Of a stretch of DNA of 64,000 nt, positions 26,330-53,158 are shown piece after piece; the stretch's first letter is position 1; each line of letters starts with the position of its first letter. The notes below the pieces were generated by a model. The model saw only the letters and a program-made list of their open reading frames with translations. It was not told the origin of the DNA and did no database searches. A program made the position numbers and the translations under genes. Source of the DNA: Takakia lepidozioides (Eukaryota > Plantae > Bryophyta); assembly GCA_030704615.1 (NCBI GenBank), contig CM060734.1, positions 12,958,001 to 13,022,000 of the forward strand. Reading direction: 5' to 3'.

Positions 26330-27484
26330 TGCTCTCCAAATCCTTTCTTCTAGTCTAGCGTTCTGTGAGGCAGGGTTGTCATCTTTCGCCCTTCTTGTTT
26401 GTTCTAGCAGCGGATGGTATGGGCCATCTCTTGGATGGAGACCCAACTCGGGTTTTTGGGGTTCATCTAGTGACCGGCGGACAACTTGCATCTCAAGTCC
26501 TCTATGTATGCTGATGACACCATCCTCTATTTGAAGAACTCGCAGCCAGAGAATATCCAAGATGCCTTCAATGCTCTCTGAGGTGTTCTACCTTGCCTCT
26601 GGCTTCTCCATTAATTGGCAGGAATCGATTGGCTTGCAGCTCTCCAGGAACAGGGTGGCCGCCATCCCACACATCCCAGCTTTGGGTTTAGACAAGGGCA
26701 TCACTTGGCTCCAAGACGGTGAGTCTCACCTTTTGCTTGGCCACATGATCGGTCACAGACTCCCACATCATCATCGTTTCGAGCCTATCCTTGCAAAAAT
26801 CAAAGCTAAACTCATGTACTGGAGTTCAACTCGTCTGTCCATTGCCGGTAGGGTTCTTATCACTAACCAGGTCCTTCTAGCTTCAATTTGGTTTATTGCC
26901 TCAGTTTGGGACCTTTGGGCTTGTTGCTTGCCAAGAAGATCATGACGGCTCTTGTTTGTAATTTCATTTGGGGAAGGTCCTCCTCCCCGGGGATCTCCCA
27001 TCGGTCCTTACTCTCTTAGAAGCAACTTTGTATGAAGAAAAATCACGGCAATCTAGGGGTCCTTGACTTTGAGTCCCAAGCTACAGCTCTCTGGCAAAGT
27101 GGATTCCTAGGTCCTTGACTTCCTCTGCCCCCCGGTCCCGCCTTCTCAGATCCTCAATTTCTCTGTCTTGCCCCTCCTCTTCTCCATATTGGCTCCCATC
27201 CCTTCATTGGCTTATGCAGGGTGGTAAACATAATTCTTCCTCCCTTCACGCCTCCCAGGATTGGACAACCATTTGGAAGGCTTGGCATTCCATCCGCCCT
27301 CACCTCACTCAATTATCTCCTAGCTCTTGTGAGGAGATTCTCAGGTAGAATATTTTTGGCAACTATAACATGGATAGTGAAGCCCTTGTTGACTGCTCAA
27401 AGCGTTGGGCTTTATGGGAAAAGGCAGGTTTGGCTAATATCTCTGACTTCTAATTCCCTGGGAATCGGATTCTTTCTTTAAGGG
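26330..27484 (+). mobile_element. Degenerate L1-like LINE ORF2 (RT) fragment; target of element A
   Basis: MYADDTILYL at ~26505, SGFSINWQES, LSIAGRVLITNQVLLASIWF. Sequence after the TSD at 53952 is plausibly the continuation. Confidence 0.85.
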
Positions 27485-27840
27485 TGTCAATTTAAATAAG
27501 CACAGTGTGAAAACAACTAGAATAAAGCTAGTTATTTGTATTTAACACTTGGATTTAGGTCAAGTGTTAAATCAGGTGTCAAGTTTAGTTTGACACCTGA
27601 ACCGTCTTATCTTCACGAGAGCGGCAGTCGCGCAGCTCATCTCTCTCGAGTTGAGCCTGCGCGACCGAGCTCCTTCATGCGTTTAGATCTGAGTGTGCTT
27701 ATGATGGGAGTGTAGGTTGTTGTGGGGTGGAGTCCCATAGCGTGGGGTGCCCCTGGCTCGACTTCTATTTTAAAGAGTGATAGCGATGGATTTCATATTT
27801 CTTGTGTTGAGAGTGTGTGTCCTTTTTAGCTTGTTTATCA
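27485..27840 (+). repeat. Terminal repeat Y1 of element A (356 bp, TG...CA), containing four hairpins
   Basis: Matches 53505-53861 with ~4 substitutions and 1 indel by eye. Confidence 0.95.
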
Positions 27841-27856
27841 CTCGAGAGAGCTGAGC
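27841..27856 (+). promoter_or_regulatory. Candidate self-priming site in the PBS position of element A
   Basis: CTCGAGAGAGcTGAGC immediately follows Y1 and is the reverse complement (15/16) of GCTCAtCTCTCTCGAG at 27635-27650. No TGG-starting tRNA PBS is present. Confidence 0.6.
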
Positions 27857-28157: not shown

Positions 28158-28256
28158 GCTTCCTCTGGTGGAGGTGTTGCTGCTGCACCTGCCGGAGAAA
28201 AGGAGGAAGCGAAGGAGGAGTCTGATGATGACATGGGTTTCAGTCTTTTCGACTAA
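28158..28256 (+). pseudogene. Captured fragment of a 60S acidic ribosomal P-protein (P1/P2-type) C-terminus
   Basis: Translates to ASSGGGVAAAPAGEKEEAKEESDDDMGFSLFD*, the conserved P-stalk tail. No in-frame ATG follows the upstream stop at 28062. Confidence 0.9.
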
Positions 28257-31172: not shown

Positions 31173-31691
31173 ATCAGGATTAGATCTTGCTTGGGCGGGC
31201 TTCTATTCTTCCCCTCCATCTCTGTACTATTTTCATTACCTTGTACTCGTAGTTGCCAAAGCCTCTCTTGGTGGAGGCCAGTCAGTCCGGGGTTTTGGGC
31301 TGGGATATTCTGCAGGATCAGCATTGCAGCTGGATTTTGGTGTGGGGGTGTTGATGTTTTGATTTCTTGTGTTTGGATCCCCCCCAACACCTGCATGCTT
31401 GACTGTGCGCCATGTTGGTTTTGTGTGGGCGCTTGCTTTCATAGGGATTAGGCCGGATTTGATCACCGGTCAATCCTAGAGTATGCTGTCGGTGGTGAGG
31501 CTGGAGTGATGACTAGCAAGACCACCAGTGTTTCTTCTATGGTGAGGCTGGGTTGATGACCAGCCAACCATAGGAGTTCTTGCGGTGGATGCAGGTGCAG
31601 GTGCCCTGAGCCATTGGGATATGACCCTTAGACTGCAACAGGTGCCCACCCGTGTCACTATTAGATTAGTACTAGAGCCTTATAGTGTCAC

Positions 31692-34160
31692 GTGGAGGAG
31701 GTGCACATTGTGAGTGTCATTACGGAGTTACCCAAGGGTTTTGAGGGGAGTACGGCTACAGGCAGTAACAGTGAGAGTGGGTTCACAAGACGAGGTATTC
31801 GGTTCAGACCACCTTCACCGCCACCCTCAACTACTGTAGAGTCAGACACAGACTCGGAGGCTTCATCAACAGGTGTGCAGTTTCATTCGCCATTGTTGTG
31901 GGACGACATGGAGGAGATGTATGGAGCTACCAAGGGGCCTCGTAGGTACTCTGGAGCTGTGGGCACAATCGAGTTGGATGACTTTATCCAGGAGTTCGAC
32001 AGCTGGTGTGATTTGCAGCAGATGCGCAATCCACAGCTATTCACCCCATTCATGGCGTGGAAGGGACTGTTCCAGCATTTGGAAGGCCCGCCTATGGACG
32101 ATTACCACGAGTTCAGGCGAGGACATGAAGCAGAGATTGAGGAGTGGAGGTTGAATTGGTCACCTGACTATGTCTCCATTACTCGAGGCACGACGCGACC
32201 AGTAGCTGCATCAGTACCAATATCTCCCACTGCCAGCACTAGTAGTGGAGCAAGTAGTGCCGGTACTTCTGCAGGTGGTACCAGTTCAAAAGGTGCTACT
32301 ACTCCTCCTGCCACGACTACAACACATGTGCCTAGATTCAACCTGGTGGTGGAGTTCTTCCAGGAGTTGCGGAGGAACTACCAAGGTGTACGGACAGAGA
32401 AGCTGCGAAGTTTGCAAGACTTCCAGCGCAAACCCAGTGAGAGCTTGCGAGAGGCCTACACTTGTATGAGGCGCTTGATAAGTGTGACGCAAGGGGTTAC
32501 TGAAGCTCAGGCAATCTAGTTCTGGTATGGAATTTTGGACAAGGAGCTCAGGAGAAGGGTGCGGGATGCAACCCTGTTACAAGCAGCCCAACCCACATTA
32601 GCAGATGTGTTTCTGCTGGCTGAGCGGATTGAGCTCAACATGGTGGAGGAGCGAGTTGTTACCATTGGGTTTGGCAAGGACATGCCTGCACGAGGCGCAG
32701 CTGCCAGCCCACAGGCACAAGGGACTGCCCAACAGCGTGGTCAGGGGGGCAAGGTTTCCCAACCCAAGTTCCATGGAGCTTACAGGGGACCTCAGGTGCA
32801 GAGGCCCGTGGCATCTTTTGCAGGCCAACAGCAACCAGGGGTGATATGTTGGACATGTGGAGGACCCCATGTCAAGAGAGATTGCCCAGAGAGTGGCAAA
32901 AGGCCGGCACAAACACAGCCTGCACAGTTGCAGTGTGGGCATTGTGGCAAGTATGGGCATGGAGATGCCCAGTGTTATGACTTGCATCCTGAGTTGCGCC
33001 CAGGCCAGTTCCAAGGGAACAATGGTGGCCGGGGGCGAGGTGGACCAGCCCAGAGAGGACAAGGTGGTCAGGCACGAGGTGCAGGCCAAGGGCAAGCTCA
33101 ACATGGCCAAGGACGCGGAGGTCAGGGTGTTGACCAAGGCATGGCCAACCGGCTTCAGCAGCTAGAGCAGAGGCTCGCTGCCATGGCTACAGCTCACGCG
33201 GTACCGACTCCCAGGCGGGATGGTCCACCTCCTATTCCTGAGGGAGGAGATATGGGAGGCATGGGATTCATGTGCGGAGCAGCACTACCACTAGAGCAAG
33301 TGGAGTCTGCTGCAGCCGTGACTCGAGAAGCAGCACGAGTTCCTGAGCCACGAGGTGCAGAGGTGGAATTGGATGCACAGCATGGGGAGGCAAGCCGTCA
33401 GGCGAGGCTTCCTCAGTCATTCACATTGGCGGAGACTGTGTCGACGTCATCCATGGCACCTAGTTCTCGCCCGACTGTTACCGAGGCGGAGGTTACTATG
33501 CCATTGGGGAGAGCTACACGTGCAGCACTGACACCTGCTACCAAGGCTAGTGCAGCCGGTGTGTTATTGGGGGCAGCCACCTCTGTGTGTCAAGCCCCAC
33601 TGTTCTCGGCAACCATGATTGCGACGCCGGGGGTAAGGCCAGCTGCAGTGTTCAGACTAGCAGCAACACTCTGTGAGAGTGGGGAGGTCACTTCATCTTC
33701 TTCGGAGTTAGTGGAAGGTGTAGTGGCAGAGGGATCCTCGGATTTGAGGGTCAAGACTGCCACGGCTGCGCCCTGGCAAGCTGCAGCTGCCAAGTTGACG
33801 GAGCTGCCAGCTAGGCCAGCCTTTGAGCGCGCCATGGTGACATCTGGAGTTGTCTTGTTAGACAACCAGGATGGCATTTTCTCTTTGAGTGGACCGGCAG
33901 GCAAGAAGTACCGGCCACTGCGGGTCTTGTTGGACTCGGGAGCTAAGCCACTGATGTTGGGTAGGGCTGCTATTGCAGGTTTGGGCCTCATGGAGGCGGA
34001 TATGGAGCCTTGTCCTTTCCAGATACAGACATCTCTGGGAGGATCAGAGCAGGCTCGGGGCATGACTCAGTTGGCCATTAGACTGCAGCCGGATCACCCT
34101 ACAGATGGCTCAGTGATGCGAGCCAAGGCCATTGTGACAGACGCGGTCTCTTACGATGTC
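31692..34160 (+). CDS. Element A Gag (two CCHC knuckles) and aspartic protease; one premature TAG at 32517; truncated by the B insertion
   Basis: FQRKPSESLREAY gag motif, CWTCGGPHVKRDC, CGHCGKYGHGDAQC, protease VLLDSGA. Confidence 0.9.
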
Positions 34161-34179
34161 TCCCAGTATGGTCGCCAAA

Positions 34180-34998
34180 TGTCGCGCGGCTTTTACTCAC
34201 CCATCCCTTCGCTATCCGAGGCGGAAACTCCAAGATAGAAGAGTTGGAAATCTCTAAGTACTCAGCCCGCGCAGAACAATCAGTCATGACCTACAGCTAG
34301 TGTATCATGGGGGTGTTTCCTATGCATTTCCCTTTTTGCATTCATCTTAGCTACCTTTGGCATTGATAATTAAGTATCAGTTTGCTTCATCAATCTATCG
34401 GTTTCCTTCACTCATCCATTCAATCCACAGCTTCTCTCAGATCTCTCTACACAGTGTGATTGTATCGTATAAGTATCAGATTATGATTTATCAGGTATCA
34501 GGCCGAAGTCATTATGTCTCTATTCTGCTCTCCAATATCACTACAGCTTTGCATATAACAAGCATCTACTAATCCTCTTTCCTCCTTCATCGTGCTCTCC
34601 ATCTCTTGCCTCCGATCTCCGCTCCTGCCTGACTCCGAAGTCCCCCCCCTTCATTCCCCGTTTCTCCCTTTTATCCTCCTATCCGCGGTTCTAACCGTTT
34701 CCCTCTCTAACCGTCGTCTGTGAACTAACATGTTCCCTTCACAGGTGTTGTTCCCCACAGTCGTTCCCTATTATCGTGACAGCTGTGTCAAGCGGTGACT
34801 GGCTGTGTTTGGCTGTGTCGGGCTGTGACTGGCTGTGTGGGCTGTGTCTGCTGTGACGACCGTGACGGGCTGTGTGGGCTGTGACGACTGTGACGGGCTG
34901 TGTTGGCTGTGTGCCCTGTGACTGCTGTGACGACTGTGACGGGCTGTGTGGGCTGTGACGACTGTGACGGGCTGTGTTGGCTGTGTGGCCTGTGACTG
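34180..34998 (-). repeat. Partial family B LTR (3' portion), followed by TT and an 18-nt PBS/tRNA-like copy at 34160-34177
   Basis: Near-identical to 41584-~42440. Merges into the post-pol CACAGCC array at ~34999. Confidence 0.9.
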
Positions 34999-35342
34999 GC
35001 TGTGATGCACTGTGGTAAGCTGTGATAGGCTGTGACACGCTGTGGTATGTTGTTATAGGCTGTGTTGCGTCGTGATGGGCTGTGATAGGCTGTGTCACGT
35101 TTGTTTTGCCCACCCTGGTCGTATATGCTGGGCCTAGCAACTAGTGTTCCATACTCCGTTCGTAACACTGGTGCAGCCCGTGACTGCTCTTGCGGTTCAA
35201 CATGCAAATCATGCTGCAGGGGTTTGTCATGGATACCACTGTACCCCTTCAACTTATTTGCATTCACTCTTCCCAGCATTTCTTTGTTAATGGTTTGTAA
35301 CATGGCAGTGTTGTTATCATACATCTTTTGTATGACATAAGG

Positions 35343-38300
35343 TCATTTCCACGGTGATTTGAGCTTAGAAGCTTGAATCTTTCCTTTCTTCTGCAACCAT
35401 AGAACCAAATCCCCCGTCTTAAAAGTCTTTAACTTGCCTTCATCAAACTGTTCCTTTCGCTTCATCTGAATTCTGGTCATATTATCAGCTGCATCAGCAC
35501 GTACTTCTTCCACATGGTATAATTCATGTTTCCTGACCTTGATGGAGTCTTGCAATTCCATTCTTTTTCCCCACTCCGTTCTCATGGTAGGTAACAGGAA
35601 TTCCACTGGAAGTAAGGCTTCCATACCATAAACTAATTGGAATGGTGTATACTTAGTTGTGACTTTATATGAAGTCCTGTATGACCACAAAGCTGTCAGC
35701 AGCTTTGTATCCCAATCCGTTCTGTTTGCATTGACTATCTTAGCCAAGATAGTACATAGTATTTTGTTGGTAGCCTCTGCCTGCCCATTACCCTGTGGGT
35801 AATATGTTGTACTCTTTCTATGCACAATCATAAACTCTTTAGTCAACAACTCAATGGTCTCATTCATGAAGTGACTTCCTTGATCACTGATAAATTCTAA
35901 GGGACATCCAAATCGTGTAAGTATGTTCTCGTACAGGAACCTTGCTGTGGACTTGGCTGTGTTGTCCCTCAAAGCTTTAGCTTCCACCCACTTTGTAGTA
36001 TAATCAGTGGCTGTAATTATGTACCTGTTTCGTGTATTCTTGGATGGTGGATTAATTGGTCCAACAAAGTCTAGTCCCCATTTCTGAAATGGTTCCGTAG
36101 GCATTGTAGGATGCAAGGCCATTCTTCCAGATCTCTGCAAAGGTCCTAGCCTCTGACATTCATCACACTTCTGACAATACTCATGTACATCTTTGAACAA
36201 AGTAGGCCACCAGTATCCTGCGAGTAGTATCTTTCTACTGGTAGTCGCTTCTCCAAAATGACCTCCAGCCACTCCTTTATGAACTTCCTCCAAGACTTTA
36301 TTTACTTCATGGTGGTACAAGCATCGTTTTAGTACTCCATCAGGTCCTAACTTATACATTCTGCTTCCTACCATAGTATAAGGTAAAGCTCTGATAGCAA
36401 TTCTCTTCCTCTGCTCCTTGCCATAACTAGGTGGGCACTGACCATGAGCAAGGTAGTATCTGATTGGCCACTGCCAATCTAACCATTCATCTGCACTTCC
36501 TTGCACCTCCATTACAAATAAACTCGCATCAGGTAACTGATCGTCCACTCCTGTGGCGGCCTCTCCTGTTGTTAGTCGTGACAAATGATCTGCCACAAGA
36601 TGCAAACGGCCAGGCTTGTAAATAACCTCGAACTCAAACTCATGCAAGATTATTAACCACCTCGCTATCCTTCCACTTATCAAAGGTTTGTTCACCAGAT
36701 ATATCAGAGCCTGGTGATCCACATAAAACATAAACTTTCTTCCCAATAGGTAATGCCTGAATTTCTTGACTGCATAAATCATTGCCAATGCTTCTCTTTC
36801 CGTTGTACTATAGTTCCTCTCAGCACTGTTCATCAATCGGCTAGCATAGTACACAGGTGAATCTATATTTCCTGTAACATTCTGGGCTAACACCGCACCC
36901 AACGCTTCTCCTGATGCATCGCAGTGAACATGAAATACTACATGCCAGTGAGGGTTAATCAGCACAGGTGTAGTTGTTACTGACAGTGTAAGTTCCTCAA
37001 ACGCCTGTTGACATTCAGCTGTCCAGGCAAACACTGCATCTTTCTTCAGAAGCTTGCTCAATGGTGCTGCTATTTGTGCATACCTTTTGACAAATCTTCT
37101 GTAATAACTGGTTTGCCCAAGGAATCTCCTTAAACTCTTAACATTCACTGGTGGTGGAGAGACTTTAATGGACTCTGTCTTCCTGGGATCCACAAGAAGT
37201 CCCTTCTTACACACAATGTGTCCCAGAAGCACCCCTGAGTTCACACAGAAAGTACACTTCTCTGGATTCAAGCCCAGACCTCTCATCCTGCATCTGGCCA
37301 GGCATAACTCCAATTTATGCAAGTGCTCATTCTTAGAGCTGTACACACTGAAATCATCCAAGAATACCTGCATGAAATCATCCAGATACTCATGAAAAGA
37401 TTCACTTATCACTCTCTGAAAGGTCGCTGGTGCATTACAAAGTCCAAAGGGCATGACTTTGTATGCATAAGCCCCTCAGTGTGTGATGAAAGCTGTTTTC
37501 CCTTGGTCTTCTTCTGCCACTTGCACTTGATTATAACCACTGAAGCCATCCATGAATGAGTACATCTCATGGCCTGCCACAGTGTCTAATACTGCTTCTG
37601 TGAATGGCAAAGGGAAAGGATCTTTCTTCGTACAAGCATTCAGCTTCTTATAGTTCACACATACTCTCAGTTTGCCATTCTTCTTGGGAACTATAACAAT
37701 GGGTGACAACCAAGTTGTATACTCTATTGGGTATATAAACTTAGCCTCAGCCAACTTCTTTATCTCTTCTCCAACCTTCTGTGCGTAGTTGGGATTCATT
37801 CTATACCTCGCCTGCTTGATTGGTACTGACCCTGGTTCCAGTTCAATCTTATGCTGACAGACTTCAGGTGGTATCCCTTTTAGATCCTCATAGCTCCAAG
37901 CAAATACATCTCTGTATTTGATGAACAAGCTTTTAGCTTCTTCGAAGAATTCCGGCTCCAAATCAGCTCCTACTTTTACCATCCTCGGTTCCTCCTGAGT
38001 TCCCACATTTACTTCTCTCACCTGCTCATCAGCTGTGATTGTCCAACCAGTCACCACTTCATCCTTTAAGCTCACAGTGGCTGGTTCTTCTAGGATTTCT
38101 ATCTCTCCCTCCTTTTCTTCATAGAAATGTGGTGGGTAACTGCTGGTTTCCTCTTCAATTGGTGTTGCCGACACTACACCACAGCAGATACCTCTTAAAC
38201 AACTTAGGCTTTCCAGCCGCATCTCCGCAACCTGCTCCCATTCTGGGTGTGCAGCAAATAGGGTAGCTTCCTGCTCCTCATCCAGTCCTCCTCTCCAGTC

Positions 38301-40974
38301 ATACTCTCTGACTCCTCGAGGTCTTCTTGTAGCAGGTAATCTACTAGATTTCTTTGTGGTAATTTGTATCTCGTGCATCCCATTATGCACAGTTAGTAAC
38401 TGAGAATTCCAGTCATGGAATACCCTGGCCTGTTTCAGCCATGGACGTCCCAATAATAAGGAGTAAGCCTCCATGACTTCATCCATTTTTAATACAGTTA
38501 CTGTGATCATAAAGATCATTTTCTGTATCTGTATCTTAACTCCTCTTATTAATCCCAATGGCTATACACTTCTTTGATCTGCCATTGTTACTGTAAATGG
38601 GGCTGGTTTCATGTTACTTAGACCAAGCTTCTTCCTTAATTGGTCTGTCATGATATTTACTCCAGAACCACCATCTATCAGTACATCAGTTAGTTCTGTG
38701 CTTCCAATTCTCAATTGGATTACTGGCATAGAATCATCAAAGTCCATGACTGGTTCTCGCCCTTCCGGCTTCACATTATAACTGGTCACCTTGCTGTTCA
38801 GGTCTGTGTTTCCTGTCTCTTGGGCAATTCGATTGATTGCCTGATACAGCCTGTGCCTACAATAAGGTGCCACAGCTAATAGCTGTCCAATGGTAATTTC
38901 TGCTTTGGTCTGACATATTACTGCAGCCAAAGTCTCTTCATTACTTTGCATGTCTGCATCTTCTTTTTTCCTTTCTTCCTCACTCCCTTCTTTTTCTCCA
39001 TCCGAATCAGAGGAATCTGCCACAGGAATATCAGTACTCTTTTGCATTTCCCTTATAGTATCTGCCACTTCCTTGTGCAGTTCCTTCTCATCTTTCCAAG
39101 TCTCTTCATCTTCAGGCATATCATTGCCACTTCCAGTCTCATCTTCTTCCTCTTCTACTGGAGGTATTAGTTTGGCTTTACTTCTTGTTACTATCATTGT
39201 ACTTACTTCTGGTACAACACATGGCCTAACCATGTGAGCTGCCACCACTGGGCCCTCATTCACAGGAGCTCTCATCTCATTCTGGTGTCTTATCCAGAAT
39301 GAACAGGCTGCCTTGCGATGTCCTGGCTGATTACAATAGTAACATAGCTCTTCACCATTGGGTCCTCGCCCTTGGTCTGTTCTTGGATTATTTCTATAAT
39401 CCTGATTCCCGGGCTGGTAATTCCCCCTTGGGTTACCCTGATAGTTGCCTCTGGAATTCCCTTGGTAATTCCCTCTTGAATTACCTCTTCCTTCCATGCC
39501 ATTGTTATAACCACCAGACCTACCATAGTGGTCCTGATCATTATTTCTTCTTGGCTGGGGCTGCACCTGATGCACCCTTACTTGCCTAGGTTCTCTTGCA
39601 GCTGTCCTTCTGTTGTAGTAACAATTCTCAGTAGAATGGTTATCCATTTTACAGATAGTACAGTGTTTCTCCTTCATGTGGCATTCTGTGGTGGTATGGC
39701 CTTCATTCTGGCATTTTGCACACCATACACCCTTCCTCCAATGTGTTGCAGCCTCTGTGGCATACTTCTTCAAGATTTCTTCCAATTTTTTTTCATAGTT
39801 ATCCCTCTTCAACTTCTCCTTTCTCTTCAACAGTTTCATGCTTCTTCTGCTTCAGCTGTTGTAAACTTCCATACACTTCATCCTCAGTTTTACTTGTCCT
39901 GAACCTATTTCGAAATGCTGTATTCAAGCCATTCCAGGTTAGGAAATGATTATCAGGGAATCTTGCATACCATTCACTTGCTTTCTTGATAAGTGAACAA
40001 GGAAACAGTCTCATCTTGGCATCATCGCCATTCTCATTGTTCACTATACACATGTGCTCAAATTGGCTAATGTGTACATCGGGATCCCCTTTTCCTGAAT
40101 ATATTGGAAAGGGTGGTTTTGCCCGTGTTGGTTGTAACGCCATCTGTGGCCCTTCCTTCTGCCCACTGGCAGGTGCTGGCACCCTTGCTGGTGCTGGTCC
40201 TTCTGGACCTGTTGTTTTTGTGGTGGATCTTCCACCAAGTGGTGGCCCTTGAGCACTCCTTGCTTCTGGTCCCACGATATTCACAGTATTCCCAGCTTCA
40301 GTTGCACTACTTCCCACACTCCCTGTCCCCCCAGAGCCAGATCCAGGCAGCCCGCCTGATCCCCCTGAGCCGACACCTTCGTTGGCCTGTGATCCAAGTG
40401 CTCCACTTGATCCAGGTCCAACGGGTTGGGATGTCCTGGTTGTAGTCTCAACCTCAGCTGTTGGGTCTACTTCTTCATATTCTTCCTCTTCTAATTTCTT
40501 CTCTCTGTTTTCATCCTCCAAGTTCTGCCCTTGGGTTTCTTCTTCACTCATGTAACTCAACTGTAATGGTGTTGGAGAGTCTGAACTCTCCGTTGGCTCT
40601 GCCACATCCTCTTCTCCTTCTTCATCTTCTGCTTCAGAAACTGGAGTTCCTGCTTTTGGTGTTCCATGCCAACTCTTATCAAAGATTTCTGTCAAGTCTT
40701 TTATCCAAGGATGTACCTCAGATCTTTCTCCTCGTGATTGATCTTCTTCCTGTACCAATTCCCTTAATCTTTCTTGCAAAGAAACAGAAGGAGTGGCATC
40801 CAACTCTAGTTCTTCCGGTATAGGTGATGCACTTTTTGATCTTGATGGTGTGAGAGGTCCAGATGATTCCCCTATGTCTATTCCTCTCTCCCAAAGATAT
40901 GGATAATTAGCTTTCAGATAGCTTTCTCTTTTTGATGAATATCTTTGTCGTCTAGCTTCTCTTTCATCACTCAT
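35343..40974 (-). pseudogene. Family B gag-pol (Gag CCHC, PR, RT, RNase H, integrase) with stops and a 266-bp gag deletion
   Basis: CYYCNQPGHRKAAC, LIDGGSG, FLDDFSVY, HCDAS...YSTTERE, GGHF...CDEC, WGLDFVGP, FISDQG, NGQAE. The deletion corresponds to 63367-63632 of the third copy. Confidence 0.95.
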
Positions 40975-40995
40975 GTCCCATGTCTTTCATTTCTT

Positions 40996-41691
40996 TTAAT
41001 GTGGCAATAACCAAAACTCTCTTCTGTAATATCTCTCGTATATGCCTGGGTTTCTTTCAAGCTTCAATGCACCCTTGGCTATACTTGAAATCTCCGTTAC
41101 CATATAACCATATGGCAAACAAGTCTGAAAAGCTGTTCTTGGTGTGAGTTTGATCCACAAAATATCCTTTGGAATCCAATTCTTTACCAGTACAAGCTCT
41201 TCATGCATATGAGTATAAACATTCACCTTTCTTTCTTCCCAGCCTTCAAACTCTACTCGTTTAATGGATAGCAACGCTATCACATAAACTAATGTTGGTA
41301 ACCAACGTGCTCTTCCTCTACAGGCTACCTGATAAATCTTTATCACTCCTTTCTCCAGACCCCATTCTGGATCAGCATCATGCACTCGTTTAAGAATATT
41401 TTCTTTACATCCGTCTGGCAATTCCAAGAACCTTTGAAAGAATTGTTTGGACAATCTTTCTTCCTTCGTTCCACAGGGAATTTGATTCACTTCAAATTCT
41501 TTAATGGTCCAACCACCATGATCCCACCAGATGCCTGTCACATCTGGTTGTTCATGTCCCAGGTCCCCAGTATGGTCGCCAAATGTCGCGCGGCTTTTAC
41601 TCACCCATCCCTTCGCTATCCGAGGCGGAAACTCCAAGATAGAAGAGTTGGAAATCTCTAAGTACTCAGCCCGCGCAGAACAATCAGTCAT
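40996..41691 (-). CDS. Family B ORF0 (231 aa) starting inside the LTR and reading through the PBS
   Basis: Open from the ATG 108 nt inside the LTR end, through the PBS, to a stop 22 nt before the gag ATG. The LTR-encoded part is codon-conserved in the old copy at 9927-10034. Confidence 0.6.
   Translation of the reverse strand: MTDCSARAEYLEISNSSILEFPPRIAKGWVSKSRATFGDHTGDLGHEQPDVTGIWWDHGGWTIKEFEVNQIPCGTKEERLSKQFFQRFLELPDGCKENILKRVHDADPEWGLEKGVIKIYQVACRGRARWLPTLVYVIALLSIKRVEFEGWEERKVNVYTHMHEELVLVKNWIPKDILWIKLTPRTAFQTCLPYGYMVTEISSIAKGALKLERNPGIYERYYRREFWLLPH
41566..41581 (-). promoter_or_regulatory. Primer-binding site of family B (tRNA-Arg(UCG)-like)
   Basis: TGGCGACCATACTGGG lies 2 nt after the LTR CA and is complementary to a tRNA 3' end ...CCCAGUAUGGUCGCCA, similar to plant tRNA-Arg(UCG). 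Confidence 0.8.
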
Positions 41692-42596
41692 GACCTACAG
41701 CTAGTGTATCATGGGGGTGTTTCATATGCATTTCCCTTTTTGCATTCATCTTAGCTACCTTTGGCATTGATAATTAAGTATCAGTTTGCTTCATCAATCT
41801 ATCGGTTTCCTTCACTCATCCATTCAATCCACGGCTTCTCTCAGATCTCTCTACACAGTGTGATTGTATCGTATAAGTATCAGATTATGATTTATCAGGT
41901 ATCAGGCCGAAGTCATTATGTCTCTATTCTGCTCTCCAATATCACTACAGCTTTGCATATAACAAGCATCTACTAATCCTCTTTCCTCCTTCATTGTGCT
42001 CTCCATCTCTTGCTCCGATCTCCGCTCCTGCCTGACTCCGAAGTCCCCCCCCTTCATTCCCCGTTTCTCCCTTTTATCCTCCTATCCGCGGTTCTAACCG
42101 TTTCCCTCTCTAACCGTCGTCTGTGAACTAACATGTTCCCTTCACAGGTGTTGTTCCCCACAGTCGTTCCCTATTATCGTGACAGCTGTGTCAAGCGGTG
42201 ACTGGCTGTGTTTGGCTGTGTCGGGCTGTGACTGGCTGTGTGGCTGTGCCGGGCTGTGACTGGCTGTGTGGGCTGTGTCTGCTGTGACGACTGTGACGGG
42301 CTGTGTGGGCTGTGACGACTGTGACGGGCTGTGTTGGCTGTGTGTTGGCTGTGTGGCCTGTGACTGCTGTGACGACTGTGACGGGCTGTGTGGGCTGTGA
42401 CGACTGTGACGGGCTGTGTTGGCTGTGTGGCCTGTGACTGCTGTGACGACTGTGACGGGCTGTGTGGGCTATGTAACCCCCCTCTATAGTGTGCTGCTGT
42501 CACCCCTAAGGCTCCTGTTGGTCTCAGTCTGTGCAAAAATTAAGGGTACCCTACAGATCCCGTATAAGTGTCTAAGTCCCCTACAGTCCTCTAACA
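41584..42596 (-). repeat. Family B 5' LTR (1013 bp, TG...CA) with internal CACAGC(C) minisatellite
   Basis: TGTTAGAGG...CCGCGCGACA on the minus strand, followed by the PBS. Confidence 0.95.
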
Positions 42597-42656
42597 TATG
42601 ACACAGCCTGTCACAGCTCAACACAGCCTACTAAAATTACACGAACCATAGAATCA

Positions 42657-45600
42657 GTGACAAGTGGACACATAAAAACTTCAGGAAAATGGATGACGGA
42701 AGAGGAAACGGAAATTACTTTAAAAATAGACACGTGGAGGTCAGGGTGCGACACACAGCAGAGAATGAAGTGCAAGGACAGGTGTCAAAAAGAAAGAGGA
42801 AAAGAACGGCCGTCAAATGGGATGAAAGGCGGGCCCATTAATGAATACGGAAAAAGGGAAACAGATCGAACGGCAAGTACAGAAAAGCTGAATTCATGTC
42901 GCATGTGTGATCCTAGTGGACTATCCAACAGGGAAAGTCCACTAAAGAAGATAAAAGTTAAAATCCAGTCACAGCAAATACAGCCAATAGAAAACCAGAG
43001 AAATGATCAAGAAAATGAAAGAAAATTGGGCGCAAGAGGCGGCGTCGTTCTGAGTAACGGGCGTCTCGACAGGACAGGCCATAAATGCTATAACTTGGAA
43101 ACTATGGAGGAACTAACCAACTATACGCTCGCAATATTACTTACGCAATGGCATAGACACGAAACGACAGAGCAGAGCTTTTCTCTTGAACAATGCTTGC
43201 AAGCCCCGCAGGCTTACAAGAGATTACCCATAGCTTTCTGCGGCAACCATACGTTTCTGCTTTGTGCACTACAGGCATTCCTGCAGTTGTTACAGCCAAA
43301 GCAGTTCTGTGAGTCTAAGATGAAGAGAGTGAGAGGAATGGAGGAAATCAGGGTGAAGAGCACCACAATTCTGCAGAAACAAACAATGGCTACCCCACAG
43401 GCGATAAAGATACTGGAGGAGCTGAGATTGGAAGGATTGCAAAGTCTAGATTGGACACTACACCATAGACAGTACATGTTACAATTTTTGCAGAACTTTG
43501 AGCCAAGGACAGGAACAACAACGGTGAAGGGAGTTGAATTAATGCTTACTCCCCTATACCTCCAGCAATTGTTTCGATTGCCAACAGGTCAGGTGCATGT
43601 GGGGGAACACAGGGCAAGACTACAAATAGGGGACTTATTCCAAGAAGGGAGTTTCTTTAAAACTCAGGGTTATGCTTGTACCAAAGCTGTGTACCCAGGG
43701 TTAAGAGAGATAGGCCAGGTATTGAACGTTCTGTTTGCCCTGAAACAGAACCAACAATATTTGAGCAGATCCTTCACAGAGGAAATACTCAAAGGCCTGA
43801 AGGGACAAGAGGTACAATGGGCGGACATTATGTACAACGCACTAGTAGAGGAGATGAAAAGATTACAAGGTACTACCGCAAAGTCTCCTATCATAGTGTC
43901 TGGCCCAATCATTGCTCAAATAATCCTTAATTCTGGCATACTTAATGCACAAGAAAGGAAGGAAATGGGAGTGTTTGAGCCAGAAACAACTGCAATGGAA
44001 GAGCAAGGCTCTTCACACAGTGAGGGTGGACTAGCAGCACAACCCGAGACTAAGATGCAGAGAAGGGGAAAGACTGTAGTGGCGGATCCACTGGCTTCAC
44101 GGATTCCGCATGATAATGTTTCCCAAGCTCATGACCAGGAAGGGGCACAGCAGCACAAAAGAATGTTATTACTGGAAGCAGGACCTTCAGAGAGGGAGGA
44201 GGAAGTTACTTCTGCATCACAGCCAACACAGCCACTTGAACGACTTGTCACAAGGTCACAAGTTATCCATGCAGCTCAACCCGAAATAATTGATTTGGAA
44301 AGTGAAGGGATAGAGATTCCAACTACAGAGCAGATAGTGGCAGAAATAGAGAAAGGGGACCTTCTCTATGAATATTCTGGTCTGGTCAAGGAGACAGAAA
44401 TCCCAGAGGTGCAACAGTTGCCCAAGGGAAATCCTGAGGTGCATATAATGCACACACCTGTGTTGGAGGTACCACAGGCGGAAGGTCATGACACTGTAAC
44501 ACCAGTCATAGATGAAGTAGTTCAGGAAGAAAATCCGGTGGGACAATGGCCTGAATGGTTAGTGAGACATCATACTGTTGAAGATCGGGAGGAACAGCAG
44601 CAACCTCACCATGATGACCCTCAACAGGCAATGCTGATGAGTTCCATAGGCAGGACACTTAATTTGTTGGGGACTTATGTCAAATCCCATGTTCCAATTA
44701 CCCAATTGACAGCCTTGAAAAGAGGAACTCAGGAAGGAGTTTGAGGCTCGACTTGCCACTGAGTGTGCAAACAAGGTCGATGAAGAGGTCACTCTCAAGA
44801 TGAAGCAGGACTTGGGCAATACAGAAATGGCTTTGCAGTTGGCCAAGCAACAACTGATTGAGGCAAACCTCACGCAAGACCAGTTGCACGAAGCACATAA
44901 GCAACAGCTATACCAAATGCAGGTGCAGCATGAAAGCAAGTTGCAAGAACTGAATGCACTACATACGGAGTTGCAGACAGTGCATAACAGGATGGAGATA
45001 CAATGTGCTACAATTACAACTATGCTTGACCAATCAACAAAAGAAATAAACAGTCAAGCGGAAAAATGTACGAAGGCAGAAGAAGAGAATGTTGAGCAAA
45101 TGAAGCTCATTGTCGATATGAAGAATACAATCTGTCGCCATGAAGATACTTTCAAGCAATACAGGCAGAGGGAAGCTGATCAAGAGAAACACATCGTGGA
45201 GTTGCAACAAACCATCGTGGCCAATAGAAATGAAATCGCGGTCAGTAACAAGGCTTCGAAGGAAGCCAATAATCTACTTGCTGCCTATGCGCAATTGGTT
45301 GAGCCACAGGCGAAGCGCATGGAGGCTTTACAACAGCAGTTGGAATTGTACAAGCTAAGAGAAGAGCAAACTCTCAGGGGAACCACAAGCAGCTTGGTGG
45401 ATAACAGCCTTATGCAGGTCTGGTTAGCACAAGGGCCAGTAGAGGGCAAAAGCCCACGGAAACTCACCCAAAGCGAGATGAATGAGCTCAGACTGCAGGT
45501 GCAGAACATTGCCACAACTACTATAGACAATGTCTATAGTAGGATAGCAGAGTTACAAGAGGATGTAGACGGACTCCAGACTCAAGTGGAAGACCTCACT

Positions 45601-46872
45601 TCAAACATCGACCAAAGAGTCTATATCCCTCAAGAACAGCTAATGGCTTCTTATTTGCAAGCCAGAACTCTGGCTTTTCAGTCTTCACAGGAGGTGCAGG
45701 AAATGCCAATGATACAGGAGCCAGTACCACCACCACCACAACAGGTCACTGTACCAATAGCTGAACCTGGGGTTACTACAACCACACCACAGCCACCACA
45801 GCCGGAGGTATGGGGCAATGCCGCTTTTAACCCACCTAAAACTCCAGCTGCAAGGGAGTACAGCAGGGCTATGCTTATGCCCTTCAACCAAATTCCCATC
45901 ATGTTGGATTTGGCTTGGAAAGAATTTAGTCCTCCGTAGTCATTCGCACATTACTACCAAATCATGCGTATTTGGCTGCCAGTGGCAACTAGGACTAAAG
46001 TTCTTCCAAACAATCGACATATTGAAGATCATCACTTTGCACAATACTGGCACGAGGCAGGTACCATGTTGAGGGAATTGGTTGCTTTCCAGGTTGTACA
46101 TGGACTCATTTATACCAAGACCAAGGAGATAGCAAGTATTGTCATGGGGTGCGGGCTATACTACGCTGCTTGTTTTCTGGTACGTTACCACATTGAGCAA
46201 CAAAAGATGCAAACACGCTTTCAAAGTTACTCCAGTGGAGATCATTGGGTATTACCTTCGGTGCCACCTCATATATACCTATATGACCCAAAAGTTATGA
46301 TGCAGAAGGATTCTCAAATTCGTTCATGATTTCAAGCAGCCTGCAACCAATTGTCAACACAGAAATTCGGACTTGATGACATTTTCTATAAGGGACATGT
46401 GGCATGGAAGTACTTGCACGCTGCACCAGTAATTGGTACCCCACTCATCTGGACAGACAAGGAGCTCAGTGCCTACACCAATTTTGCTGTTCAGCGGTTA
46501 CACCAAGTTGTAAAATACAAACTTCCAGACATGGTAGGACAGCATTGTATGCCCCAGATGATTCCACAAAAAGTTCGAAAATTAAAACACCTGAGAGGCG
46601 ATGAGGATTCTGATACAATTGTTTCTTCACACAATTCTTTTGACATGGGAGAAGACTATGCAATTCAGATGGAAGAGAAGAAACAAAGGGGATCTCCTAT
46701 GCCGGAAAGATTACCTCGATATCAACCTCCAGAAGGCCTCACTTATCCAGGTAGTGATCAACCATCTCCATCAACCAGAGACAGACCTCGGGCTCGTACA
46801 CACAGCCCACCACGAAACTCTCAACGTCAACAAGGTGCTCACTCACAAAGGTTTGCTACTCGGAAACAGTAA
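42657..46872 (+). pseudogene. Family B 3' extra ORF (~1400 codons; Athila/SIRE extra-ORF-like segment plus long coiled coil), one frameshift and two stops
   Basis: Colinear ORFs 42657-44744, 44800-45939, 45964-46329 and 46351-46872 end just before the PPT. Homologous segments occur at 7245-9290 and 57551-58470. Confidence 0.8.
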
Positions 46873-46893
46873 ACCGTGAGGACACGGCTTTTT

Positions 46894-47828
46894 GGGGGGA
46901 AGGGGTAATGTTAGAGGACTGTAGGGGACTTAGACACTTATACGGGATCTGTAGGGTACCCTTAATTTTTGCACAGACTGAGACCAACAGGAGCCTTAGG
47001 GGTGACAGCAGCGCACTATAGAGGGGGGTTACATAGCCCACACAGCCCGTCACAGTCGTCACAGCAGTCACAGGCCACACAGCCAACACAGCCCGTCACA
47101 GTCGTCACAGCCCACACAGCCCGTCACAGTCGTCACAGCCCACACAGCCAGTCACAGCCCGGCACAGCCACACAGCCAGTCACAGCCCGACACAGCCAAA
47201 CACAGCCAGTCACCGCTTGACACAACTGTCACGATAATAGGGAACGACTGTGGGGAACAACACCTGTGAAGGGAACATGTTAGTTCACAGACGACGGTTA
47301 GAGAGGGAAACGGTTAGAACCGCGGATAGGAGGATAAAAGGGAGAAACGGGGAATGAAGGGGGGGGACTTCGGAGTCAGGCAGGAGCGGAGATCGGAGGC
47401 AAGAGATGGAGAGCACGATGAAGGAGGAAAGAGGATTAGTAGATGCTTGTTATATGCAAAGCTGTAGTGATATTGGAGAGCAGAATAGAGACATAATGAC
47501 TTCGGCCTGATACCTGATAAATCATAATCTGATACTTATACGATACAATCACACTGTGTAGAGAGATCTGAGAGAAGCTGTGGATTGAATGGATGAGTGA
47601 AGGAAACCGATAGATTGATGAAGCAAACTGATACTTAATTATCAATGCCAAAGGTAGCTAAGATGAATGCAAAAAGGGAAATGCATAGGAAACACCCCCA
47701 TGATACACTAGCTGTAGGTCATGACTGATTGTTCTGCGCGGGCTGAGTACTTAGAGATTTCCAACTCTTCTATCTTGGAGTTTCCGCCTCGGATAGCGAA
47801 GGGATGGGTGAGTAAAAGCCGCGCGACA
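46894..47828 (+). repeat. Family B PPT (46894-46905) and 3' LTR (46909-47828, 920 bp)
   Basis: GGGGGGAAGGGG-taa-TGTTAGAGG...GCGCGACA. Shorter minisatellite than the 5' LTR. Confidence 0.95.
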
Positions 47829-48739: not shown

Positions 48740-49740
48740 GTGGCAGTATCCGGATAAAGGCATTTGCCTCTGGACTTGTTTGGCGGGATCAGCACCGTAT
48801 TGGCTGCTGGTTTACAGGCATGTGTGCGGGTAATGCGTTACCTGATGTGTTTGAGAGGATGAGACTGCACGACGGCGTCTTACTGCGTGTTGCTCAGTTG
48901 GTACAAAACAGCATTACCTGCTTTGTTGCTAGTGTCTGCAGTTCGTGGATACCAACAAGCCTGCCAGCAGACATTTCGTTGCTGGGGGCGCCGGATTTGT
49001 AGCAGGTTGGCTCCATTGATCTTGTAGTGGCAGGTTGGCCCCTGCCAAGGCATTCATTAGCCGGGCATGACAATGGATTGCGAGACTCGAGAACGGAACT
49101 GTCTTTTTGGGAGATGGTGCGGATTTTGCGCCACTTGCAGCTTCATCAAGCTGTATCGCCAGCATACATCTTGTAGAATGTGCAACTGATGGGCGATTCT
49201 CGGGCCAGGGTGATGGCCAGTGTGCATCAAGTCCGGTCGTGGTTGGGTTGACAGTGCTGCTGGATGCATCTGCAGTGGGATCACGGCTCATCGTCCACGG
49301 CTATGGTAGACTAACTTGATTCCACCCCACCCGCACTGCCAAGCGTGCATTTGATGGGTGTGCAGAGCGGCCAACACCCTCATAGTGGACACATTTTGGA
49401 CATAGGGAGGCAGTTCTCAACGTGTGAGACTGAGACCGTTCGCCTTTGGCAGTGGTCAAGAGGGTGGGTCAACCACGAGCCGCATTACCTACACTGCTCA
49501 GCTTCCCAGGATCCCATGCTTTTCGGGATGGTGGACCTGGCCTCCTATGGGATGCTCAGTTGCAACAGTTAGTGGAGCCTAATGCCGACGAGCGGCGCGG
49601 CTATGGTTTTCACTGGGACCACGCGGCGGTGCTTCTCTCTTTCTGAGGCATCACGTCGTCAGGTGTTGGGGCAAGCAATGGATCTCAATTGCTTGACCTG
49701 GATTATCAGCTTGGCTATGGCTGAGCAACGTAGAGTGCGG
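48740..49740 (+). pseudogene. DNA (cytosine-5)-methyltransferase domain, DNMT3-like, within the element A polyprotein (frameshifted in this assembly)
   Basis: Motif I DLFGGI (48773-48790). Motif IV DLVVAGWP/CQG (49018-49051), followed by GLRDSRT..FWEMVRIL. Motif VI YIL*NV (49165-49182). Motif VIII LDASAVGS/AHRPRLW*TNL (to 49318). Motifs IX-X EPNADER..AM.F and SEASRRQVLGQAMD (49654-49683). All in canonical order. Confidence 0.9.
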
Positions 49741-50149: not shown

Positions 50150-53015
50150 TTACAAGAAATTGCTTTGCCTTCAGTTTGAAGGACTTGGGAGCACTGAAGG
50201 GTCAAGAGATCCGTATTAAGTTGTCACTGACACGCCAATCTTTCGGAGACCCTATAGATACAGTGACATGGAGAGGTCTTTGATTCAGATGAGGACTCAA
50301 GATCTCTGGAGGCAGGTTTGGTGGAGCTCTCTGTGGAGAGTATGCTTCAGCCACAGTGATGCCAGCCAGAAGGATGTCTATGGCAATTGGACGGAGAGAC
50401 GTAGTTGCGGTGATTACCGGCCCTGTAAATCGTCAGACCAAGTCCGATAGGTATGCCATGTGGTGCCGACACCAGAGGAGATCTTTTATGCCATTGGGCA
50501 TTCCAAGGTCTTTAGCACGTTGGATTTACGATCCGGATATCACCAGTCGCCGATCGAGGAGTCGGATAGCAAAAGACGGCATTCTGGGGGATCAATGAGC
50601 ACGGGAAAGATTGCCTATACCAGTGGCGGTTCTTACCATTTGGGCTTAAAAACGCTCCCGCTGATTTTCAAAGAGTCATGGACAGGATTCTAGCAGGGGT
50701 GTGGAGTTTGCTCGGTGCTACATAGATGACAATCATCATCTTTAGTGCTACGGTGGAGGAGCATGAGAGACACCTTCAGGGGGTATTTGAGCGCTTGAGG
50801 GCGCACGGATTGAATTACATCGGGAAAGTGCAAGTTTTCCACAACCAGATTGAGTATCTGGGTCACATGATATATCCTAGAGGATTGGGGTACAGCAGAC
50901 TGATAGAGTCCATTGCACAGGTTTCCACGCCCCACGGATGTGAGCCGAGTTTCGAGCTTTCATGGGGTTTAGCAAACTATTACAGACGGTTTGGTTAGGG
51001 ATTTAGTGCCATTGCAAAGGTCTAACTCCTAACAAGCTGACCAAGGGGACCAGGAGTGGCAGGGGATAATGAGCAAGAACAAGCTTTTCAAGAGCTCAAG
51101 GCGAGGTTGACCTCGACGCCCATCTTGAGACGACCTATCAGGGGGCGTCCTTTTCAGCTGCATACAGATTGGAGCATGTTGGTGGGGCTTGGAGCGATGC
51201 TCACACATGGGATGATAGGGAAAGAGTTTCGTAGTGGCTATGCTAGCCGCTCAAACAATGTTGCAGAGTCTAAGTATAGCTCATATGAGGGAGAAATGCT
51301 TAGCTGCATTGTGGGCCGTGGCACACTTCAGGTGCTATCTATACGGCAATCTCTTCAACCCTTGTCACGGATCACCAACCACTCAGTGGTTGATAGAGTC
51401 ACAATCTTACGGGGAAGCTTGCACGGTGGGCACTCATCCTTCAAGAGTATGACTTTCAGGTGGTTGCATCGACCGGGTTTGGTCAATCGCAATGCAGATG
51501 GGTTGAGTCGCAATCCATGCACGAGCCAGCAGGATGACACTGGAGCTCTGTGGCATGGTGAGACGGACTAGGAGATGGTGCCCGGATGGCATGCATCTGC
51601 ATTTCTTTTCTGTGTATCTTGGCAGCGGAAGGCCAGGTTGGACCTGCAACAGGGATGACTGTAGATCAGTGTCTGAGGACCCTGAGCCAGCATGAGCAAG
51701 GTGGCGCCAAAGAATATACATAAGGATTCAGTTGTGTTTGGACTACCTCCGCACTAGAGACACTGCAGCCACTGTGACTGCCAAGGAGAGGGATCGGATC
51801 CTACACACAAGCCAAGAGGTTCAAGTGGGAGGGACACACCTGCTCCGAGTGTGGTAGGATGGTCGAGTGAGGATTGTGCCTCACCCACACAGCTGGCACG
51901 GTTAGTGTGCATGCCCATGAGGAGTTGGGGCATTTGGGGTGCGACGCACTCATAGTCTACTGCAGGGGGCAGTATTGGTGGCGTGGTATGCACACAGAGG
52001 TGCCCAATTTTGTGGCTAGGTGCATGGTGTGTGACAGGGTGCGTGCTTCATCAACGCCCTACTCCACAATTGCACCCTCTTCTTTTCGATCATGGGATTT
52101 GGGCTACAGGTGGAGTCTTGACTTCGCAGGGCCGTTGCCACTGACCATGCGCCACAAACAGTACGTGTTGGTGATGGTGGAGCACTTCTCCAAGTGGATT
52201 GATTGGTTCCATTGCCTGATAAGGCTAGTGAGGGAGCTGCGTATGCATTCTTGGATTGTGTGCTTAGCGCGATTCGGTGCTCCAGCTGAGGTACTCACGG
52301 ACCAAGGGAGAGAGTTCTTGGGGAGTTTCAGGCTTTGTGTGACAGGCCTTGATATACCACCGCACCACTTCTCGGATCATCCTGAGGCCGATGGCTTGGC
52401 AGAGAGAGTTGGTTTTCAGACAGTAAGAGGGGTTTGCGCAAGTATGGCTTGCAGAGGGACACCTAGAGATTTGGACCTTCAGTTACCCTGGTTAGCCATG
52501 GGCTACAGGTTCAGCAAGCAAGCATCACTTGCCTCCTTTCTCACCAAATTTCTTCTCTTTGGCCGAGAGCCGCATTTGCCTACATCCATTCGTAGAGAAG
52601 CTACTACAGTTCTTAACCTTGACGATCCGGACGTGTGGGGCACGTGCATGTGAGCAGCGTGCAGAGTTGTTCAAGAGAGTCATGCCCATGGCTTTCGGGA
52701 ACCTTGCCATTGCACAACACCGTGATACGTTGAGGTATGCTACCATACGTGGTGGGGGCTATCGTCCTGGGGTTCGGAGATTCAACCCTGGTGACTATGT
52801 CTATCTGCAGCAAACTGCTCCTACGACCTTGGATGTGATTTGCAGGACGTGTTATTTTGAGGGTTCGAGAGGTCTTGCCCTCAGGCGTCTTGGTCTTGGA
52901 GGGTCGGGATGGCATAACTTGGGAGGACCATGTGCGTAATTGTGCGCCATGTCACCTTCCAAATGTCGATGGCAGGATAGACCCAAACTTGGCAGTGGTA
53001 TCTGTAGGTTTGAGG
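50150..53015 (+). pseudogene. Element A RT - RNase H - integrase (many indels)
   Basis: DRYAM/PTPEEIF, LDLRSGYHQ, PFGLKNAPADFQR, YIDD (50719-50730), LHTDWS, YSSYEGE, NADGLSR, HEELGH...CMVC, WSLDFAGP, LTDQGREF, DGLAER. Confidence 0.93.
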
Positions 53016-53158
53016 TGCATGTTGTGTGGGTCTGCTAGAGGGGCAGCCCCCATACTGGTGTGTGATCGATGCTCTAGAGGTTGCATATGGGATGCTTGAC
53101 TCCACCTCTTGAGATGGTTCCGGATGGGGATTGGTTATGTCCACATTGCATTGGATAG
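53016..53158 (+). CDS. PHD finger at the integrase C-terminus of element A
   Basis: CMLCGSARGAAPILVCDRCSRG[W]HMGCLTPPLEMVPDGDWLCPHC, a C4HC3 finger once one missing G at ~53083 is restored. Confidence 0.9.

Follow-up and report, generated by a model that had tools for sequence, protein, structure and literature searches.

What primes reverse transcription in element A, a retrotransposon copy in the moss Takakia lepidozioides? The site that follows its left repeat does not start with TGG, unlike that of its neighbor, element B. The initial annotation of the 64,000-nucleotide stretch of DNA that we analyzed (the window) had proposed that the element's own RNA serves as the primer, in the manner of Tf1 and the sushi group. 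Our best explanation as a whole, to which we would assign a probability of about 0.78, is that element A primes itself, has a permuted repeat layout, and integrates by way of an internal palindrome.

Element A and its repeat layout

Element A spans positions 27485 to 53947, inside an L1-like (LINE) remnant, and it contains a nested block (34161-47828). It is a dead copy of a Gypsy retrotransposon, from a lineage with a C5 methyltransferase and a PHD finger. It encodes gag, protease, the C5 methyltransferase, reverse transcriptase (RT), RNase H, a DDE integrase, and a PHD-like end, and it is broken by one stop codon and many frameshifts. Between two copies of AGGG, the order is repeat Y1, the candidate priming site, the internal region, the polypurine tract, repeat Z1, GC, Y2, and Z2 (Table 1). 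Y1 and Y2 are 98.6% identical, with four substitutions and one indel.

Named relatives of element A are found in Marchantia, Calypogeia, Sphagnum, Coleochaete, and Closterium. Its gag and protease are 57-65% identical to the top Marchantia proteins and, over long matches, 48-60% identical to Calypogeia or Sphagnum proteins. In tblastn, its RT shows 54% identity over 155 amino acids to the RT of the related family F1; for other elements in the window, the figure is 32-41%. The methyltransferase domain (PF00145) was found in the relative L004 with an E value of 7.1e-9, and the PHD finger (PF00628) was found in the relative L050 with an E value of 2.7e-8; the window's own broken PHD-like piece had no match in Pfam.

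Table 1. Features of element A along the window
Feature	Positions	Strand	Evidence and remarks
Left target-site duplication AGGG, 4 bp	27481..27484		Same 4 bases at 53948-53951; inside L1-like LINE remnant
Repeat Y1 (distal U3, R, U5)	27485..27839	+	Its initial TGTC is the integrated left end; U5 probably ends at C27839
Weak TATA-like word (inferred)	27607..27613	+	Relatives have TATAAA, TATAAT, or TATAGC at that place; not a canonical TATA box
Hairpin enclosing the predicted self-primer and spanning the predicted start	27627..27665	+	Folding
Predicted self-primer, 13 nt	27639..27651	+	Complementarity, covariation; pairing could reach 27635 (17 nt)
Candidate primer-binding site	27840..27852	+	Complementarity, covariation; pairing reaches 27856; C27851 private to window copy
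Captured 3' end of ribosomal-protein gene, in 3.8-kb leader	28165..28256	+	Read from sequence; ends EESDDDMGFSLFD-stop
gag and protease	31686..34160	+	In-frame stop at 32517-32519
Nested Gypsy elements (B and neighbors)	34161..47828		441-bp duplication of element A's protease region on both sides
C5 DNA methyltransferase domain, broken	48800..49176	+	PF00145, E 9.4e-5 on 49003-49173
RT, RNase H, DDE integrase, frameshifted PHD-like cysteine pattern	50200..53150	+	Domain and homology searches; many frameshifts
Polypurine tract AGGGGGGCG	53407..53415	+	Kept in F1, F2, and F3
Repeat Z1 (proximal U3), 87 nt	53416..53502	+	Ends GACA; 100% identical to Z2
Internal palindrome GACA-GC-TGTC at Z1/Y2 joint	53499..53508		Halves are the two integrated ends
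Repeat Y2	53505..53860	+	Repeat comparison with Y1
Repeat Z2	53861..53947	+	Ends GACA, the integrated right end; Y2/Z2 joint is the inferred cDNA-end joint
Right target-site duplication AGGG, 4 bp	53948..53951		Matches left copy

Several other features of the window were seen along the way. The captured piece in the leader presumably comes from a 60S acidic ribosomal P-protein gene (the family name is taken from the motif), and a Pfam scan gave no match; contigs with other flanks from X8, which may be an RNA run, cover 28150-28254. The leader may hold further captured gene pieces. The 441-bp duplication around the nested block (33720-34160 and 47829-48269, 99.8% identical) far exceeds any integrase target duplication. 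On the minus strand, the 5' LTR of element B is followed by a tRNA primer site of the TGG type, and its 3' LTR is also followed by a copy of this site (34143-34161 and 41548-41565), as though a primer copy had been kept at insertion. The three B-family LTRs (34162-34957, 41566-42597, and 46908-47828) are nearly identical, with one of them inverted, and have tandem repeats of 9-10 nt. Near 34779, the B LTR carries GACAGCTGTGTCAAG, which is close to the palindrome context of element A. Finally, 480 nt of A-family RNase H/integrase DNA (57073-57553, minus strand, 85% identical to 51485-51968) is located at the integrase-frame end of another Gypsy element.

The site after the left repeat is complementary to that repeat

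The 16 nt at 27841-27856 are CTCGAGAGAGCTGAGC; all but one of them are complementary to 27635-27650 (15 of 16), just as the initial annotation had reported. The sole mismatch is C27851 opposite T27640, and the pairing extends one base beyond the 16 nt, as A27840 pairs with T27651. Among 20,000 dinucleotide shuffles of Y1, none reached 15 of 16, and eight contained the exact 10-mer. Elsewhere in the 64 kb, only the second copy of Y (at 53655) matches the site at 13 or more of 16 positions. Position 27851 is A in every contig that covers it (21 from X1, 14 from X2, 20 from X4, and 1 from X8, representing at most three studies), so C27851 is private to the window copy and the other copies pair at 16 of 16. 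Contiguous pairing in the window runs for 10 nt from 27841 or 11 nt from 27840, as compared to 16-17 nt in other copies. By the REXdb criterion, self-priming is called when a stretch of 10 nt or more that begins 0-5 nt after the 5' LTR is complementary to that LTR (PMC6317226), and element A has such a match.

When contig depth is summed, the 5' half of Y (27485-27670) exceeds the region behind the primer site (27855-28400) about 100-fold. This contrast is not a measure of copy number; it hints at many solo or nonautonomous derivatives with other U5 ends.

Primer and site covary across four families

We searched metagenome contigs with a gag profile, which identified 271 related stretches, and we kept the best 80 as loci. 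Of these, 48 match the repeats of family F1 or F2; the other 32 had no match (many are too short) and were not used. After dropping six duplicate loci and leaving out L057, whose Y is partial, we scored 34 5' copies, including the window's; L070 and L076 share a flank, and both were counted. The count was anchored on the LTR; without an anchor, scanning for inverted matches of 11 nt upstream of gag yielded many chance matches in AT-rich DNA. With ARAGORN, there were no tRNA genes in the window, and none in 41 of the 80 loci scanned. A search of viral contigs identified no relative.

The register of primer and site is intact in 29 of the 34 copies, and the primer site is lost in the other 5. 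The decayed F1 copies (n = 24) pair at an average of 10.8 of 13 positions, with at least 10 in 21 copies and 6-7 in the remaining 3, and the four F2 copies average 12.5 of 13. If the register is slid by 1-3 nt, mean pairing is just 3.0-4.4, with a maximum of 7; if primer and site are taken from different families, about 6 of 13 are paired across copies.

We then compared one copy from each of four families: element A (the window), F1 (L073), F2 (L020), and F3 (L081). The F1 and F2 rows are chosen, well-paired copies, and F3 is a single contig. Each family has a different sequence after its LTR, and each of these is matched by the family's own LTR at the same place. Across 13 columns, 51 of 52 cells are paired, the one exception being the private C27851, and 10 of the 13 columns change on both sides, which is the compensatory covariation that the initial annotation had suggested looking for. 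Within a family, pairing is 12-13 of 13; between families, it is 6-7, except for A with F3 (9-10). F3 was found after the rule had been set, and it obeys the same register: within 700 nt after the start of Y, it has no perfect pair of 9 nt or more other than its 13-mer. The length of the primer is less sure, since pairing reaches up to 17 nt in A and F1 and ends at 13 nt in F2 and F3.

The predicted RNA start and the fold around it

The distance to the TATA box is nearly constant. The first A of the primer is 29 nt after the T of the TATA box in F2, F3, and L003. The interval from the same T to the last base of the primer measures 42 nt in both F2 and F3; in 20 of 24 F1 copies, it is 41 or 43 nt. 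In element A, it is 44 nt, counted inclusively, from T27608 of the TATA-like word to the primer's end. Given the spacing in these relatives and the folding of the duplex, we predict that the RNA of element A starts at 27635-27639, which falls within the interval proposed by the initial annotation (27635-27641).

The initial annotation had also placed the core of the primer in the loop of a hairpin, and folding agrees: the hairpin at 27627-27665 has 13 bp and one bulged C, with the core in or near its loop, where the model adds three weak pairs. The energy for 27620-27672 is -29.6 kcal/mol (z = -3.28), and 2 of 200 shuffles were as good. F1 and F2 likewise fold a hairpin over the primer, and one can be read in F3. 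If the predicted start is right, the complete hairpin should be possible only in the 3' (Y2) copy in the RNA.

We also considered whether the hairpin is a general switch, and we reject this, as it works in just two of the four families. In two families, F2 and F3, the primer is masked by an upstream hairpin if the RNA does not begin at the primer: the probability of the duplex is 0.87-1.00 with a start at the primer and 0.00-0.03 with starts 30-40 nt before the primer's end. In A and F1 (L073), the duplex forms regardless of which start is tested (0.57-0.64 and 0.88-0.96, respectively). We folded five leaders from the predicted start, and in each of them the duplex forms and encloses a multi-branch R/U5 fold. 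This arrangement, a duplex closing a large fold with R/U5 stems, may be likened to the fold of Tf1.

Because nearly every cell of the four-family comparison pairs, most of its columns covary, and the primer ends 41-43 nt after the TATA box in three families, we consider it very likely, on sequence comparison, that element A and the three related families prime reverse transcription themselves. The earlier proposal of self-priming in place of a tRNA is thus strongly supported by compensatory change across four families and by a distance to TATA that is fixed in three of them.

The ends of the cDNA probably differ from the integrated ends

The initial annotation had further proposed that the CA of Y defines the end of the cDNA, and here the related loci disagree. 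The last base of the primer is U and the first base of the site is A in each of the four families; the A of Y's CA pairs with the primer's last U. In F2, this A follows TTTG, hence there is no CA end. The Z repeat begins with that A, right after the polypurine tract, and the Y/Z joint of L014 retains U5 without the A. From element A alone, the end of U5 is ambiguous by one base. With the relatives considered, U5 and the cDNA probably end at C27839 rather than at A27840; the priming site would then begin with A27840, and the CA would be incidental.

Integrated copies have other ends, namely TGTC at the start of Y and GACA at the end of Z. Both ends could be mapped at 14 loci, representing 13 insertions, and every one of these loci has a target duplication of exactly 4 bp at the start of Y and the end of Z. 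In addition, 33 contigs in each of X4 and X5 exit Z at its last base into unlike flanks. The palindrome GACA-GC-TGTC is exact in L004, L073, and L081 and decayed in L014, L020, L033, L050, and L072.

The A-internal-B-A-B layout is present in the window, L014, L020/L022, L033, L050/L072, and L073. Y/Z joints were available for seven insertions and are also present in contigs from run X2. Four of the seven are exact, one has a substitution, and two are imprecise. At the joint of L014 there are 19 nt of filler; the joint of L037, which is a rearranged copy, has the first 10 nt of its own primer site plus 5 nt of filler. The L037 joint fits a plus strand that had copied the primer and supports priming at this site. 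Overall, the Y/Z junction looks end-joined.

Six loci have a Y-internal-Z form with a 4-bp duplication, and X4 and X5 include contigs with the polypurine tract, Z, and then flank. Such forms could arise from a one-LTR circle, a double internal cut, later recombination between Z repeats, or collapse during assembly. Among 38 5' starts of Y (31 insertions), none has Z upstream.

Two side observations concern the contigs themselves. L081 (9,285 nt) carries gag-pol as a pair of frames that are open over long stretches; the contig ends overlap by 127 nt, and there is a single Z-GC-Y repeat. It is filed in a cyanobacterial genome bin, likely as eukaryotic contamination, and is either a one-LTR circle or collapsed copies. 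F2 elements have tandem repeats in their coding or 3' regions (L020, 16897-17351; L080, 14055-14365; L060, 12763-13213).

A model for priming and integration

In the model, the RNA would begin at 27635-27639, and its first 13-17 bases would pair with 27840-27856. A cut by RNase H after U27651, as in Tf1, would free the primer. Ordinary LTR reverse transcription would follow, with the minus strand made from the site, transfer at R, and the plus strand made from the polypurine tract. The priming site and the polypurine tract would fix the ends of the cDNA, and these would not be the ends that are found in the genome. The linear product would have Z-GC-Y at both ends, running from 53416 (the A after the polypurine tract) to C27839, and its ends, without TG...CA, would be distinct from the integrated ones. 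These two ends would then join to each other, which would create the Y/Z joint. The DDE integrase would cut GACA-GC-TGTC inside the LTR, the GC would be dropped, and the two GACA-3' ends would be inserted. The copy in the genome would thus be a circular permutation of the joined cDNA, and a cut at the palindrome of the left LTR would give Y-internal-Z-GC-Y-Z. We lean slightly towards the last part, in which the cDNA integrates once its ends are joined and its internal palindrome is cut. Integrase is reported to cut palindromic LTR-LTR (att-att) junctions in foamy virus and HIV-1 (PMC1180852, PMC4372172).

One result counts against the simple form of the model: a two-LTR circle that is cut at random should also yield Y-Z-Y-internal-Z, and with 0 of 38 such starts, a bias in cutting is needed. 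The left palindrome is 87-115 nt from the joint and the right one is 283-356 nt from it. Our guess is that integrase, if bound to the ends of the cDNA, might use the closer (left) palindrome.

Alternative explanations

It is possible, though we think it somewhat improbable, that self-priming is correct and that there is no joined circle. The Y/Z joint might be copied from RNA, be made by a template jump of RT in every round, or be repaired after strand transfer by an internally cut linear cDNA. This would explain the absence of Y-Z-Y-internal-Z, and it fits the precision of five of the seven joints (one of them with a substitution). A jump could be guided by the first base of the primer site, which is also the first base of Z in A and F1, or by the six bases that the primer site and the start of Z share in F3. 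However, after the usual first transfer into Y2, Z2 is left uncopied, so a templated joint needs an extra step. Also, the filler and the retained primer site at two of the seven joints fit end joining, and the palindrome with its 2-nt spacer, which is kept in four families, would still be required.

Alternatively, the duplex might be conserved as an RNA structure that serves packaging, dimer formation, or translation, with priming achieved otherwise. Covariation proves pairing, not priming, and the duplex does close a large multi-branch fold. On the other hand, it begins exactly at the U5 end that appears in the Y/Z joint, its other arm sits where the TATA box predicts the 5' end of the RNA in three families, and one joint retains a copy of the primer site. 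These make a purely structural role unlikely.

A host tRNA, half-tRNA, or other small RNA as the primer, with the match to the LTR a structural side feature, is very unlikely. In its favor, the 3' end of the primer resembles a tRNA T-loop word. Most plant LTR elements use a tRNA, and about 2% use a half-tRNA (PMC6317226). But the site does not have the TGG start, and the site differs in every one of the four families, where in a single register it is matched by the family's own LTR, so one tRNA cannot serve all of them. An Rfam scan of 27400-28400 placed no family at the priming site; its one match in that interval (E = 0.64) lies elsewhere.

Finally, we give almost no weight to Y being an ordinary LTR with Z repeats from a nested or tandem event: Y alone does read TG...CA in the window and in F1, but the related loci refute this, as there is no duplication around Y1...Y2 whereas the 4-bp duplication surrounds Y1...Z2 (14 of 14 loci), the polypurine tract adjoins Z rather than Y, and the Y of F2 lacks a CA end.

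Relationship to known elements

Of the initial annotation's comparison to Tf1/sushi elements, the likeness of mechanism holds and the lineage does not. [quoted passage not shown] Like Tf1, Tf2, Tj1, and Tcn1, element A lacks a tRNA site and has a U5-adjacent site that is complementary to the (predicted) 5' end of its RNA (PMC7175516, PMC4600332, PMC6317226). In contrast to Tf1's 11 nt, the predicted primer in the lineage of element A is 13-17 nt. Element A also differs in having a PHD finger and a C5 methyltransferase, permuted repeats, and cDNA ends that are probably not the integrated ends. It does not have paired full LTRs with TG...CA cDNA ends; instead, its layout is Y-internal-Z-GC-Y-Z. 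A chromodomain (PF00385), which most members of the Tf1/sushi group carry at the C-terminus of the integrase, was not found, and a PHD finger is present instead in L050, P0021, P0022, P0032, P0114, and P0117.

We also built a tree from the RT of L072 and 39 proteins that cover at least 170 amino acids of it. In this midpoint-rooted, 40-row tree, which has no outgroup and excludes the named RTs of Tf1, sushi, and Tcn1 as well as element A's own broken RT, a 14-row clade (99/99) includes the F1 RT and excludes all 9 chromodomain rows. This clade holds proteins from Coleochaete and Closterium. Because of the PHD finger, the lack of paired LTRs, and an RT clade without chromodomain rows, we do not file element A under Tf1/sushi, Tcn1 included. 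A search of the PDB found only Ty3 and more distant RTs.

The position of the methyltransferase varies in the lineage: it comes after RNase H in P0114 and P0117 and before RT in P0032. A large set of metagenomic polyproteins (P0114, P0117, P0123, and others) has RT, methyltransferase, integrase, and PHD domains.

The split direct repeats of the DIRS order, with an A-internal-B-A-B layout, are also found in Ngaro and PAT elements. Like element A, DIRS-order elements such as SymbioDIRS-Dnmt3 have a layout that implies a joined B/A intermediate (PMC5890265), but they use a tyrosine recombinase, whereas element A encodes a DDE integrase (rve), and its integrated ends read TG...CA and are flanked by a 4-bp duplication. 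We reject membership in the DIRS/Ngaro group, given the rve and H2C2 domains and the 4-bp duplications; the frames that we scanned had no match to a recombinase domain.

A close description in print is that of KnitGypsy-Dnmt3 of Klebsormidium nitens, whose DIRS-like repeat layout was noted by De Mendoza et al. 2018 (PMC5890265). It has the Gypsy order (PR-RT-RH-IN) with the methyltransferase inside Pol and A-coding-B-A-B repeats, and element A has both features. The article's text on this element gives no mode of priming, target duplication, internal palindrome, or mechanism, and three of its supplement files held no matches. As no sequence named Klebsormidium was among the matches in our searches, the likeness rests on the described features.

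Two other systems share parts of the proposed mechanism. First, the TAR elements of plants (Houba, Osr-1), which are Ty1/copia, are also predicted to be self-priming outside of Tf1/sushi (PMC6317226); they have the Copia domain order and ordinary paired LTRs (as selected by that survey), as opposed to the permuted Gypsy arrangement of element A. Second, in two-LTR circles of foamy virus and HIV-1, a DDE integrase cuts a palindrome of two att ends (PMC1180852, PMC4372172), but that palindrome is the LTR-LTR joint and yields a normal provirus, while in element A the palindrome is inside the LTR and the copy is permuted.

Implications

Self-priming itself is already known, including in plants (Tcn1, TAR), and it was predicted for 12% of 13,566 plant LTR elements (PMC6317226). 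Here, it is supported by four-family covariation in a lineage in which no chromodomain was found. In the open-licence literature of PMC and bioRxiv, the permuted layout was noted once, and we found no mechanism of priming or integration for the lineage of element A. Surveys that demand paired LTRs with TG...CA would likely miss this lineage.

The unexplained DIRS-like layout of KnitGypsy-Dnmt3 now has a testable model, in which a DDE integrase uses an internal palindrome. We see about an even chance that, in this algal and bryophyte Gypsy lineage with a methyltransferase and a PHD finger, self-priming arose independently of Tf1/sushi, the cDNA ends lack att sequences and are joined, and an internal att-att palindrome is obligatorily cut. 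More broadly, this bears on the old question of whether circular retroelement DNA is a true precursor of integration. If the model is correct, then joined or circular cDNA, which is a textbook dead end, would be the obligate substrate of an LTR retrotransposon. Relatives of element A exist in Marchantia, a genetic model.
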